IMG/VR virus record: IMGVR_UViG_3300047552_000880
Location: 1-64,000 of that record
Reading direction: 5' to 3' (one strand)
Origin: an uncultured virus (IMG/VR IMGVR_UViG_3300047552_000880)
Taxonomy: Duplodnaviria; Heunggongvirae; Uroviricota; Caudoviricetes
DNA: 64,000 nt
In this document: in pieces, positions 5,446 to 23,102 of the stretch
How positions within the stretch are numbered: the first letter of the stretch is position 1
Layout: every line of letters begins with the position of its first letter
Program-made: the position numbers and the translations under genes
The notes under the pieces: generated by a model
What the model saw: only the letters and a program-made list of their open reading frames with translations
Told to the model about the DNA's origin: nothing
Databases searched by the model: none

Positions 5446-5480
5446 TCAAGTTTTGTTGATGATGTTATTGTATCACAGAA
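5446..5480 (-). promoter_or_regulatory. 35-bp repeated promoter/leader cassette, copy 3
   Basis: Identical to 2296-2330; followed by GAGGTG RBS. Confidence 0.8.
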
Positions 5481-19731: not shown

Positions 19732-20759
19732 AATTTAGAGAGTTCCATTGCCTCTGTATAGATTTCTGACATTTTCTTTTTTAACACATCTTTATCATTA
19801 ACCGCAATATCATCAATAACATGCATTAGCATATGATGTGTTCCCTTGAATTCAATTTTTGTATTCAGAGCAGTCTCAACAGATTTCTGCATTTCGGTAT
19901 CAATAATCTGTAATGATAATGGCTGTGTTTGCTGAACACGCTCAATGAACTTGTCGAATTTCTTCTGATCGGTTTTGTTGACCACTGTCACTTTAATATG
20001 ATGTGGATATTCTAGCTCAATATCTGGTACTTCGTTTTCATCATATGAAAATTTGTGATGTAAGGTAAACGGGTTTCGATTGAACTGGTAGCTACCATCA
20101 TCTTTCAGTATAGTGAATCCTTTTGGGTCATTGTAATCAGACCAATCCATTTCATACGGTGTACCAACATAGATAACATTATCTTTCTGGCTCCGCGTGT
20201 GATAGTGACCACTGAAGACTGTTTTGTATTTGGATAGTTTGCTGTGGTCTAATCCATGTTCAGCGATTGTTCCGGGATGTAGAGGAAAATTTGCGAACTC
20301 GAAATGACCGATAGCAACATTAGATTCAGACTCATTTGCGAACTTGAGTGATGCTGGCTCGTTTTCCTCATTGATCCAAGGGTATAAATCGACGTATAAG
20401 CCGTTTTTATTGATTGTATGTGGGTAGGTATCAACCACTGTCATAAAACGCCTCTGAAGCAGTTTTGGTGCGTTTACGCGGTTAGTTGAACGATAGAAGC
20501 TGTCATGGTTTCCGCAGACAACATACAATTCGATATTTCTGGCGTCTAACTGATCAAAAAACATTTCATTTGCTTTCTGAAGCGACAGAAAGTTGACTGA
20601 CTTTCTCTTATCAAAAAGATCGCCTGTCTGAATAATTGTTTTTACGTTATGAAGATCAATGAAGTCGAACAAGTAGTCATAGAATTTCTTCTGGTACTCG
20701 TACATGAAAGGAATATTTTCGCGAATTCCGAAATGTGTATCACCAAGAATAATAATCAT
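19728..20759 (-). CDS. gp47: Recombination endonuclease nuclease subunit (Mre11/SbcD-like)
   Basis: GDTHFG, GDLFD, GNHD, SGHYH, GTPYEMDWSD. Confidence 0.95.
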   Translation of the reverse strand: MIIILGDTHFGIRENIPFMYEYQKKFYDYLFDFIDLHNVKTIIQTGDLFDKRKSVNFLSLQKANEMFFDQLDARNIELYVVCGNHDSFYRSTNRVNAPKLLQRRFMTVVDTYPHTINKNGLYVDLYPWINEENEPASLKFANESESNVAIGHFEFANFPLHPGTIAEHGLDHSKLSKYKTVFSGHYHTRSQKDNVIYVGTPYEMDWSDYNDPKGFTILKDDGSYQFNRNPFTLHHKFSYDENEVPDIELEYPHHIKVTVVNKTDQKKFDKFIERVQQTQPLSLQIIDTEMQKSVETALNTKIEFKGTHHMLMHVIDDIAVNDKDVLKKKMSEIYTEAMELSKL

Positions 20760-21364
20760 GCTAATAGACTACAAATATCGTTACCGTTGTTCTGTTCTTT
20801 TTGTTTCTTGGCAGTATACGGTGTTTTATTCTTGTGGCGCAGACTTGGATGCAATAAGCCTGTCTGATCTTTTTCTGTGTCTTCGCGAAGGCGATCAACA
20901 AAAATATCATTGTCTTCCAGAAACTCTACGAATGCGTTTCCTACTTCAACGTCGTTGTATATAGATTGCTGAACAAATTCGCTACTGAGTTTCTGTTGAA
21001 TCAATGCTGCCTTGACGGAATGTTCACGTTGCTCGATCTTGATACGAGTGATATATTCGTTCCAACAAATCTGAGAGAAATATGCAAATGGGTTCTCGCC
21101 ACGATTAGGATCAAATCTATCGATCTTGATCATGCACTTGAGAATGGCATCAGAAATCATTTCATCGCGAAAAGAGTAGCCAATGAAATTATAGAGGTTG
21201 CTCATGTTAGTGGCAATTCTGATGATTGCGTTCGCAATGTCGTCCGGGATTACCGGACGTTCTTCATTATTTTCTATTGACAGTTTCAACTCAGACAGAT
21301 AGATGCACATTGCTGCATATAAGTCTTTGTTAGAAACATAATGTGTTGGCTTCAATTCACTCAT
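20756..21364 (-). CDS. gp55: Late-transcription sigma factor
   Basis: HYVSNKDL, NFIGYSFRDEMISDA, NPFAYFSQI...RIK.E. Confidence 0.95.
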   Translation of the reverse strand: MSELKPTHYVSNKDLYAAMCIYLSELKLSIENNEERPVIPDDIANAIIRIATNMSNLYNFIGYSFRDEMISDAILKCMIKIDRFDPNRGENPFAYFSQICWNEYITRIKIEQREHSVKAALIQQKLSSEFVQQSIYNDVEVGNAFVEFLEDNDIFVDRLREDTEKDQTGLLHPSLRHKNKTPYTAKKQKEQNNGNDICSLLA

Positions 21365-21409
21365 AATTTCTCCGCAAAATATCATTATAACACAATTATT
21401 TAATGCGGT

Positions 21410-21961
21410 TTCATTTCTCCATAGGGAAAGCAGTAGGGTGAACTATTGGGGAATAACTTCTAGGGATTCTAAGGCTTAGGGGTATCTTTTAATATTAGAT
21501 ACTACTCTTTACTTAGATTAGTCCGAAGGACTGTTGCGTAGCAACCCATAGAACATTCTCAGTTCATTCCTACTTCGAGTATTAGATTACTCTAATACGC
21601 TCTTGACACTTTCCATACTGAGTGTACTTATGTCTCAACTCTAACCCTCTTATCGACCGAGTTTTTATCAGGCTACCTTACGGTCATGCCTGCACAGACT
21701 CCATACCAAGAGTTGCAATCTCTCGGAAACTGTGTATGGTTATCACCCTTTTCAGGAGGTCGTTTGTAGCAATGATTGAGTGAACCAATGCTCCGGCTGC
21801 TTTCCAATTCCCCGGTGGGTCAGTTTATATTCTTACATGCTCATGATGCTTCATGAGGTTTTTACGTGAACCTTTAAACTGTAACTTAAACACGATCCCT
21901 ACTTTGACACGGTGCTAGGATTTGGCATTAAAGTAGATAGTAAGTGTCACTAACCATCTAC
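21410..21961 (-). ncRNA. Candidate large structured RNA (about 450-550 nt), family unknown
   Basis: About 600-bp ORF-free gap; begins just after a sigma70 promoter and a TAAATA motif; many nested stems with GUAA/GAAA tetraloops; 3' end uncertain. Confidence 0.62.
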
Positions 21962-21964
21962 AGT

Positions 21965-22001
21965 TATTTATCATTCTAACACAAGAAAATCAGAATGTCA
22001 A
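21965..22001 (-). promoter_or_regulatory. Near-consensus sigma70 promoter plus adjacent late-promoter motif
   Basis: TTGACA (22001-21996), 17-bp spacer, TAGAAT (21978-21973) with TG extension; TAAATA at 21970-21965. Confidence 0.8.
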
Positions 22002-22660
22002 AACTTTTTTTGTCTTGCTGCATGCATTGTTGCAGAAATTTCTGATACCGCCCATCTGTTGACCTGTGCTTGATGCATTTTCACGAAGTCGCTGTTACTT
22101 AGCATGATGGCTGTCTTCCAGTCTTCGATGGGTATCTGCATGAATCTACTTCTGACATGTGACCATAGATATTGTCTCACGGCTGGTCTAACTTCAGGGA
22201 ACGTAGCAACATTAGACAGATACTGCCAGTTGAGTTTCTGTACCTGCTGCCTTGGATTGTTCCTATTTGCCTTTGCGATTTGCCACATCTTATCAAACAG
22301 TTTTCCTCGAATGATGTACGGCAGAATGTGAAAGTTAATCCCAAAGAACGATTTTGGTGTCACATTGAATATGAAGCTAAGAGGGAACCTGTCATAGAAA
22401 GGCAGAGTATCCTTATGCTTTGGGTCATAGAAGAAGAAATACATACTTCCGGGAAGTACGATATTTTTTTGCAGAGATTTGTGTTGATGAAGAAATTCCT
22501 GTCTCTCTGAGCCATCAAACTTCAGCTTGTTTAGTTTTTCTCGAAACCAATCTACACTTTTTGCTTGATGGAAATTTTTATCCTGCCGAATGATATCAAG
22601 AATCGACATTCCCTCTTGATGATCGATTTTCTTTTTCTGAGGGTTTGATTGTACTTCCAC
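21998..22660 (-). CDS. gp2: DNA end protector protein
   Basis: PGSMYFFFYDPKHKDTLPFYDRFPL, GINFH.LP, YL.SHVRSRF. Confidence 0.93.
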   Translation of the reverse strand: MEVQSNPQKKKIDHQEGMSILDIIRQDKNFHQAKSVDWFREKLNKLKFDGSERQEFLHQHKSLQKNIVLPGSMYFFFYDPKHKDTLPFYDRFPLSFIFNVTPKSFFGINFHILPYIIRGKLFDKMWQIAKANRNNPRQQVQKLNWQYLSNVATFPEVRPAVRQYLWSHVRSRFMQIPIEDWKTAIMLSNSDFVKMHQAQVNRWAVSEISATMHAARQKKF

Positions 22661-22661
22661 T

Positions 22662-23102
22662 TTAGATTCCTAGATCGTCTTCTGTTAACACAATGAATTC
22701 TATTCCCTTTGAGCGACAGAAAGCTGTTGCTGCCTTCCATTTTGCCTGATTGATCAGAAACGTTTTAAGAGCCTCTGCATAGGTCGCTTTGTTCTTTTTC
22801 ATCACTGGTGGCAATGTCTCGTGTTTTGGTTTAATCTCAATTGCATATGTCTTTATTTCATCGTTTCTATTTTTGATCTTTGCAATGAAGTCAACAAAGT
22901 ACCGATGTGGCTTATTATCAATTGGACTTATATAAGGGATTACCAATGTTTCTGATGAGTAGAGAACAACATTTTTATTGGCATCAAGCCAGTTCAGAAA
23001 ACGGGTTTCCCACGAAGATCGTGAAACGATTTCATTGAGATTTCCTACATATTTTTCTGGCGCTATTTTTGGAACCCATTTTCTTGGTGTTGCTCTAGCC
23101 AT
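22662..23102 (-). CDS. gp4: Head completion nuclease
   Basis: KYVG...RSSWE..F, SSE...IPY.SP.D.KPHRYFVDF, EIKP, NQAKW.AA, LTE. Confidence 0.93.
   Translation of the reverse strand: MARATPRKWVPKIAPEKYVGNLNEIVSRSSWETRFLNWLDANKNVVLYSSETLVIPYISPIDNKPHRYFVDFIAKIKNRNDEIKTYAIEIKPKHETLPPVMKKNKATYAEALKTFLINQAKWKAATAFCRSKGIEFIVLTEDDLGI

Follow-up and report, generated by a model that had tools for sequence, protein, structure and literature searches.

A promoter-flanked non-coding segment between gp2 and gp55 of an uncultured T4-type phage as a candidate RNA-level cassette

Introduction

What does a stretch of more than 600 nucleotides (nt) without an open reading frame (ORF) do in a gene-dense phage genome, directly in front of the gene for the late sigma factor? 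This question is raised by the IMG/VR record IMGVR_UViG_3300047552_000880 from an uncultured T4-type phage, where 612 nt (positions 21386-21997, hereafter the gap) separate the genes of gp2, a DNA end protector, and gp55, the late sigma factor. The window analysed here is the first 64 kb (64,000 nt) of this 125,892-nt record (G000), and all positions refer to the window unless another record is named. The same locus is found, with zero differences across ~10 kb, in a longer contig (G011; 178,209 nt, direct terminal repeats, rated 100% complete), and the sequence-bearing runs carry freshwater or aquatic metagenome labels; among five sequencing runs, no RNA data set is listed as carrying it.

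A previous reading of this DNA (the original prediction) had taken the gap for a large non-coding RNA (ncRNA) in the size class of ROOL and GOLLD, possibly representing a new class. We followed up this proposal computationally. The gap looks like a lineage-specific insertion bracketed by a duplicated −10 region, a feature that had been missed before, and below we consider what such an insertion might do.

Results

The gap between gp2 and gp55 is non-coding

No ORF of at least 60 amino acids (aa) lies in the gap, which had been described as the longest ORF-free one and is indeed the longest true gap in the whole 125,892-nt record; one longer apparent gap was discounted because it sits inside a 1303-aa ORF running off the contig. 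Coding density is high, with only two true gaps above 500 nt in 126 kb. In the gap, stop codons of all three kinds occur in all six frames (8-20 per frame). Codon usage was scored as log-odds, with 65 long ORFs from this genome as the training set; the scores were negative in all six gap frames, with most windows scoring from −5 to −48, and the best 40-codon window in the gap reached 2.5 vs. a mean of 8.6 for true frames. When stops were read as X, none of the six frames matched Pfam and one of the six gave a weak PHROG match with an E-value (E) of 0.16. The stops in all frames, the negative codon scores and the lack of a convincing family match allow us to conclude that the gap is non-coding and bears no trace of a recently dead gene.

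Recoded stop codons and small ORFs were considered and rejected. As to the former, reassigning any single stop opens at most 110 codons, and that frame lies on the opposite strand. As to the latter, none on the minus strand exceeds 44 aa (the one of this length has a TTG start), and no convincing ribosome-binding site was seen by eye. Reading through the stops revealed neither the residual family similarity nor the codon bias of a decayed protein gene.

A duplicated −10 region brackets the gap, which is absent from the relatives obtained

Two promoters frame the gap, both directed towards gp55 (Table 1). The upstream one, P1, is the TTGACA-17-TAGAAT promoter of the original prediction; it is present at 22001-21973 on the minus strand, agrees with the consensus at 11/12 positions and has the TG of an extended −10 element in addition. 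P1 is the genome's best sigma-70 promoter match. It is among three genome-wide matches to a strict regular expression, and it alone has a 6/6 −35 hexamer among the 21 extended −10 sites listed. The TGA stop of gp2 (22000-21998) falls within this hexamer. The second promoter, P2, is an extended −10 element without a good −35, as read from the sequence. At either end of the gap lies a copy of the 16-nt direct repeat TTGTGTTA(G/T)AATGATA; the two copies are 15/16 identical, lie 589 nt apart and coincide exactly with the two −10 regions. Because the repeat copies are the −10 regions of P1 and P2, it appears that one ancestral promoter became two, now separated by ~570 nt of foreign sequence that lacks ORFs.

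The nearest relative with obtainable DNA (G006, locus L086) is a 171,909-nt contig rated 99% complete, whose gp55 is 47% identical. It shares the gene order gp4-gp2-gp55-gp47-gp46, and its gp2-gp55 spacing is just 63 nt, with one promoter in this spacer, TTTACA-17-TATAAT. Furthermore, we collected 80 gp55 loci from viral contigs and 79 other gp2 loci. The spacing upstream of gp55 was at most 169 nt in all 78 evaluable loci, and that downstream of gp2 at most 52 nt in 65 of the 71 evaluable ones (8 were too short). In the six exceptional loci, gp2 seemed to be followed by gaps of 535 and 785 nt, which were rejected as artefacts of the ORF rule: in the three that were re-examined, an ORF of 262-291 aa begins before the gp2 stop.

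A terminator scan revealed no minus-strand terminator-like site within 21386-21997; therefore, transcripts from P1 must read into gp55. The original prediction had argued that gp55 has its own promoter, so that the gap need not be its leader. The first half is borne out by P2, whereas the second is not, as no terminator precedes gp55. The gp55 gene likely starts at the ATG at 21364, 5 nt behind a GGAG ribosome-binding site (21373-21370).

The TAAATA motif that had been placed before the 5′ hairpin is found there as well: GATAAATA occupies 21972-21965, and the hairpin starts at 21961. This motif resembles a T4-type late promoter and might act as one. The minus strand of the 126-kb record has only four ATAAATA, including the one at 21965-21972, and genome-wide ATAAATA is not enriched (23 seen vs. 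~27 expected per strand).

As a separate observation, GGAGAAAT is present twice, 47 nt apart, once at 21366-21373 as the gp55 ribosome-binding site and once at 21412-21420 near the right end of the insert. The second copy leads into a 4-codon mini-ORF and could be a gene-start remnant brought with the cassette.

Table 1. Positions of promoters, repeats, predicted RNA elements and genes at the gp2-gp55 locus
Feature	Position	Strand	Remarks
Promoter P1	21973-22001	minus	TTGACA (22001-21996), 17-nt spacer, TG (21981-21980), TAGAAT (21978-21973)
GATAAATA, T4-type late-promoter-like motif	21965-21972	minus	directly behind P1 −10; putative function
Promoter P2 (gp55's own), extended −10 TGTGTTATAAT	21384-21394	minus	TG 21392-21391, TATAAT 21389-21384
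Direct repeat, left copy TTGTGTTAGAATGATA	21969-21984	minus	P1 −10 region
Direct repeat, right copy TTGTGTTATAATGATA	21380-21395	minus	holds P2 extended −10 (TGTTATAAT)
5′ hairpin GUAGAUGGU/ACUAUCUAC	21933-21961	minus	predicted; 9 bp and inner 3-bp stem; p 0.97
Hairpin CUCAUGA/UCAUGAG	21840-21857	minus	predicted; p 0.87
Multibranch domain B, 183 nt	21641-21823	minus	single-sequence prediction; closed by CUGACCC/GGGUUAG; helix p 0.65-1.00
8-bp hairpin GUAUUAGA-GUAA-UCUAAUAC	21579-21598	minus	predicted; p 0.98
Domain D, 143 nt	21432-21574	minus	predicted; on a 22-bp interrupted helix; helix p 0.90-0.99
Distal hairpin CCGCA/UGCGG	21372-21408	minus	predicted; p 0.92; spans P2
Baseplate hub and tail-tube-like genes	near gap	minus
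gp4, head closure gene	22662-23102	minus
gp2-like DNA end protector gene	21998-22660	minus	phrog_429, E 2.9e-44
gp55, late sigma factor gene	20756-21364, longest ORF from 21385	minus	phrog_234, E 4.8e-41; Sigma70_r2
gp47 and gp46 genes	after gp55	minus	SbcD/SbcC-like pair

Predicted fold of the minus-strand transcript

The fold was predicted from the single sequence, and the helix probabilities (p) are pair probabilities of the Boltzmann ensemble. Several helices proposed earlier were recovered: the 9-bp 5′ hairpin at 21961-21933 (p 0.97), CCU-GAAA-AGG (p 0.69) and CAGGC..ACC-GUAA-GGU..GCCUG (p 1.00/0.96). In three further elements the inner helix held, but the outer stem did not. Thus, CUCAUGA/UCAUGAG (0.87) formed inside a domain whose proposed closing stem CAGUUUA/UAAACUG, although present in the sequence, had p < 0.6; CCGAGAG/CUCUUGG (0.94) formed without the enclosing UACACAG/CUGUGCA (6/7 pairs, p < 0.6), and GUAUUAGA-GUAA-UCUAAUAC (0.98) without the surrounding CUCAGU/ACUGAG, which is likewise in the sequence with p < 0.6.

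The predicted domain B comprises the helices CCGG/CCGG, UGGUU/AAUCA, CGACC/GGUCG, CCU-GAAA-AGG, CCGAGAG/CUCUUGG and CAGGC..GUAA..GCCUG. In domain D, the long helix would be built of AGUAGG, UGAACU, GAAUG and UUCUA with their partners and would enclose three hairpins, GUUGC/GCAAC, AGUCC/GGACU, and UCUAAG/CUUAGA with GUAUCU/AGAUAC. The 3′ arm of the distal hairpin is predicted to cover the first two G of the gp55 GGAG ribosome-binding site. An apparent 'UUCG' loop turned out to be a UUC triloop. Candidate tertiary contacts were rejected: of the parts of an 11-nt GAAA receptor, four copies of UAUGG and one of CCUAAG are present, but by eye their flanks are unable to pair, and long-range complements of 9-15 nt were at chance level according to a repeat search and our own estimate. 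The CUCAUGA/UCAUGAG palindrome (21840-21857), with GTTTTT behind it, scores as terminator-like when the plus strand, which is antisense to the RNA, is read.

We compared the folding of the segment 21966-21396, which begins at the presumed transcript start, with that of the rest of the genome. The minimum free energy (MFE) gave z = −3.15 for the minus vs. −2.51 for the plus strand with 100 dinucleotide shuffles (−3.94 with 20 shuffles), against a genome background with a mean of −1.32 and a standard deviation of 1.31 in 36 control windows; the genome folds better than its shuffles throughout. The fraction of low-entropy positions was 0.289 on the minus strand, a value reached in just 2 of 80 windows, while the plus strand of the gap was average. 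The original prediction that the GNRA loops work on the minus strand agrees with the count of GNRA- or UNCG-capped stems of at least 3 bp, five on the minus strand vs. none on the plus strand; five are reached by 15 of 820 genome windows (top 1.8%). The folding and hairpin figures together moderately favour a minus-strand signal at the RNA level, and the region is no outlier.

No known family and no homologue of the gap was found

The absence of RNase P, transfer-messenger RNA (tmRNA) and group I/II intron hallmarks, noted from the start, was confirmed, since Rfam and ARAGORN gave no such model, tRNA or intron matches. Rfam 15 yielded zero matches at the gathering score in the whole 64-kb window; with E up to 10, the region 21300-22100 gave only four chance-level matches to small nucleolar or long non-coding RNA models, with 8-18 bits vs. 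gathering scores of 44-100. ARAGORN found 0 tRNA or tmRNA genes in the window, and the tRNA genes nearest to the gap are ~90 kb off.

Homologues of the gap were sought at several levels. Distant blastn and megablast against 50,697 phage records found none, nor did blastn and nhmmer against 165 fetched loci, and BLAST against the whole records of ten relatives returned 14-19-nt words with a best E of 0.08-0.97. Exact-pattern scans of IMG/VR viral contigs with four 17-18-nt stretches recovered only the identical 178-kb contig. Similar scans of JGI metagenome contigs gave seven chance matches of 19-25 nt each, the best of which, once aligned, was unrelated GC-rich sequence, and those of GTDB genomes nine chance matches of 18-24 nt each. 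Single-sequence covariance models of domain D (R1) and domain B (R2), run on five records and 81 loci (633 kb), found only themselves and one match with E 7.3. With moderate folding against the background, no homologue and no covariation, the claim of a large ncRNA comparable in size to ROOL and GOLLD, and possibly of a new class, could not be upheld.

The gene order around the gap is that of a T4-type phage, with every gene on the minus strand. The closest gp55 relatives, among 96 matches in a search of 5.8 billion proteins, are 47-51% identical, none exceeding 51%, and the best cultured one, from a Synechococcus phage, reaches 41.5%. Judged by these sequences, the phage is isolated among its known relatives. 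The GC content of the gap, 40%, equals that of the genome.

Variation of the locus in metagenomes

Contigs with parts of the locus come from three studies (2019 and 2025). Pieces covering the gap were nearly unchanged, with 0 differences in 152 nt for run X3 and 2 in 200 nt for run X4. In contrast, X3 pieces over gp55 differed at 13 of 331 nt, and all five differences listed fall at third codon positions. A Fisher test on these figures gave p = 0.003. Within gp55, at 20852-21031, the X3 strain differs at 10 of 180 nt. The drop of divergence to 0/152 in the gap suggests a possible boundary of a recombination mosaic.

In addition, a 518-nt X3 contig matches 21897-21955 alone, i.e. 59 nt with the 5′ hairpin and the sequence downstream, at ~85% identity with three indels, and both of its flanks are unlike the window. 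This contig may stem from another phage that has a diverged version of the 5′ module.

A second ORF-free unit and a family of promoter cassettes in the same genome

Outside the window, the record holds a second lineage-specific ORF-free unit, here called region 2 (G000:C1 ~87,580-88,315; 1081-1815 of locus L083, minus strand). It is without a minus-strand ORF and lies between a tail-tube-like gene and uvsY; because these genes abut without a gap in G006, region 2 is lineage-specific as well. Its promoter, TTGACT-16-TATAGT with TG, is followed by GATAAATA and is 22/28 alike to P1. A 35-nt direct repeat is present in three copies, spaced by 81 and 55 nt, and there is a good intrinsic terminator as well. 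Rfam and Pfam gave no signal in region 2, a pattern scan of viral contigs for it revealed no homologue, and its folding does not surpass that of shuffles (MFE z = +0.24). Region 2 could be origin-like or a repeat-bearing element.

The 9-mer GTTAGTGAC, behind ATAAATA, is common to the 5′ hairpin of the gap and one repeat unit of region 2, and these are its only two copies in the record. A profile of the three region-2 repeat units, however, gave 33 matches with E up to 100, among which the gap was absent, and a looser pattern was no commoner than its reversed control. Kinship between the gap and region 2 was, therefore, not established.

Near-identical early-promoter cassettes AATAATCTACACATA...TGATACAATAACTCCATCG occur five times at G000:C1 96,599-100,336 (plus strand) and once at 5475 of the window (minus strand). 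This family is the phage's own set of repeats resembling promoter-early stem-loop (PeSL) cassettes and apparently marks a hyperplastic region.

Discussion

We consider the chances about evenly balanced that the gap is a promoter-flanked non-coding cassette working as RNA, be it a leader or an ncRNA. The cassette would have entered the gp55 promoter through recombination within the −10 region, leaving two promoter copies: P1, complete and near-consensus, just behind gp2, and P2, an extended −10 element only, just before gp55. The host sigma-70 RNA polymerase would start at P1, at ~21966, and transcribe ~580 nt of ORF-free RNA. As P1 transcripts meet no terminator before gp55, the insert would be a long leader, that is, the ~600-nt 5′ leader of an early gp55 message continuing into gp55-gp47-gp46. 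P2 would supply a second transcript with a leader of ~12 nt, keeping gp55 expression independent of the insert. The long RNA is predicted to fold, in order, into the 5′ hairpin, the 183-nt multibranch domain, the 8-bp GUAA hairpin, the 143-nt long-helix domain and the last hairpin. The latter, lying partly over the gp55 ribosome-binding site, would form only in the long transcript and could damp gp55 translation from the strong early promoter. Such an RNA would be made early and abundantly, and it would most likely act in cis, affecting how stable the P1-derived gp55 message is or how well it is translated.

Several observations weigh against this reading. An MFE z of −3.15 or lower is found in 3 of 36 genome windows, 16 of 80 control windows do as well in MFE per nt, and the mean positional entropy (0.783) is equally low in 10 of 80. 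In the ensemble, the three closing stems proposed earlier are outcompeted by other pairings. The direct repeat is merely 16 nt long and AT-rich. No homologue exists in the collections searched, and hence there is no covariation support for a conserved fold. Low variation of the gap fits constraint on a non-coding stretch, but it fits a recombination mosaic or mixed strains equally well, because divergence tapers off step by step as the gap is approached (10/180, 3/151, 2/151, 0/152) at depths of 2-5. Finally, G006 does without the gap sequence, which is therefore dispensable for the T4-type core programme.

The closest parallel we see is with the PeSL cassettes. In T4-type phages, as described by Arbiol et al. 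2010 (PMC2839356) and Comeau et al. 2014 (PMC4122927), recombination between cassettes of a sigma-70-type early promoter and a stem-loop inserts or excises cargo, and crossovers were mapped between the −10 box and the Shine-Dalgarno (SD) sequence. Just as in those systems, the variable insert has a copy of a sigma-70-type early promoter on each side; in the relative G006, which lacks the cargo, the two genes are neighbours. The crossover would lie at or beside the −10 box. One of the five PeSL subclasses has its stem-loop directly behind this box (PMC2839356); here the consensus promoter has an adjacent stem-loop, the 9-bp hairpin, 12 nt behind the −10. The gap differs from the cassettes in those accounts in that its cargo has no ORF, it lies between the core genes gp2 and gp55 and not in a hyperplastic region, just 16 nt are repeated, and its hairpin lacks a polyG/polyC stem and is followed by neither a U-run nor a terminator call. 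Moreover, the genome's own promoter cassettes (96.6-100.3 kb) are unlike that of the gap in sequence.

A cassette of this kind need not do anything, and the insert might be functionless cargo that arrived by promoter-mediated insertion and either decayed or never had a function, such as a dead ORFan or homing-endonuclease cassette, transcribed only through its position behind P1 and kept by chance or recency. Its absence from G006 and the other gp55 and gp2 loci, the lack of homologues and folding statistics inside the genome's range all accord with this, as do region 2, a second ORF-free insertion folding no better than shuffles, and the SD-ATG-like remnant GGAGAAATG at 21420-21412 near the right end. 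Against it, no frame retains a coding signal, or a family match when stops are read as X; GNRA hairpins and a low-entropy fold are seen on the minus strand alone; pieces of other samples and years show near-identity while gp55 has synonymous variation; and the genome is of high coding density, with two true gaps above 500 nt in 126 kb. We regard functionless cargo as rather unlikely, though a serious contender.

It is improbable, in our view, that the gap encodes a large ornate ncRNA that stands alone and forms a new class, processed from the P1 transcript and acting in trans, in the way presumed for ROOL, GOLLD and other large phage RNAs. The gap shares with ROOL (RF03087) and GOLLD (RF01998) a phage-borne location, an ORF-free length within 500-800 nt, predicted multibranch domains and GNRA loops, and this reading is favoured by the size, the strong dedicated promoter, several hairpins with GNRA caps and the well-defined helices of two multibranch domains. 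Against this, the gap fails their covariance models both at the gathering score and at E 10, and no other Rfam family matches at the latter threshold; it has no relatives, hence no covariation, and our own covariance models pick up no further copy in the 126-kb record or the records of four relatives. Nor is there a terminator or recognisable processing site before gp55, and the MFE z is unexceptional. Unlike ROOL and GOLLD, the gap has no defined 3′ end and is not beside tRNA genes. The record's only tRNA genes, tRNA-Arg(TCT) and tRNA-Met(CAT), are at G000:C1 111,167-112,009, far from both ORF-free regions.

A broader version of this idea is similarly doubtful: the gap would encode a large autonomously promoted structured RNA outside Rfam that moves, flanked by promoters, as a cassette among T4-like phages and is the non-coding equivalent of the PeSL-shuffled ORFan cassettes, with the X3 contig as a second diverged copy in another phage and the uvsY-side unit as a second cassette of the same system.

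In T4, origin transcripts belong to oriF at uvsY and oriG at gene 34, and these origins are far shorter than 600 nt. Very unlikely, finally, is an element acting as DNA with an incidental fold, either an oriF/oriG-type origin where a promoter transcript primes via an R-loop or another recombination or regulatory site: a strong promoter for a predicted transcript without a protein product inside a gene-dense T4-type genome does recall such origins, and region 2 adjoins uvsY with its three 35-nt direct repeats and a promoter alike to P1, but the gap shows neither an AT-rich unwinding stretch, at 40% GC like the genome, nor iterons, its direct repeats being two-copy families of 9-16 nt, the strand-specific hairpin signals point to RNA, and the region-2 repeat profile does not find the gap.

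Conclusions

The gap is a single-genome candidate and, as such, a documented lead rather than a new RNA class. The uncultured freshwater phage that carries it, with its complete 178-kb genome, is a place to look for phage ncRNAs. If the gap is indeed a promoter-flanked cassette working as RNA, promoter-mediated modular shuffling in T4-type phages would be able to place non-coding cargo where a core regulatory gene, that of the late sigma factor, is controlled, and the arrangement of two promoters and a long leader could retime late gene expression.

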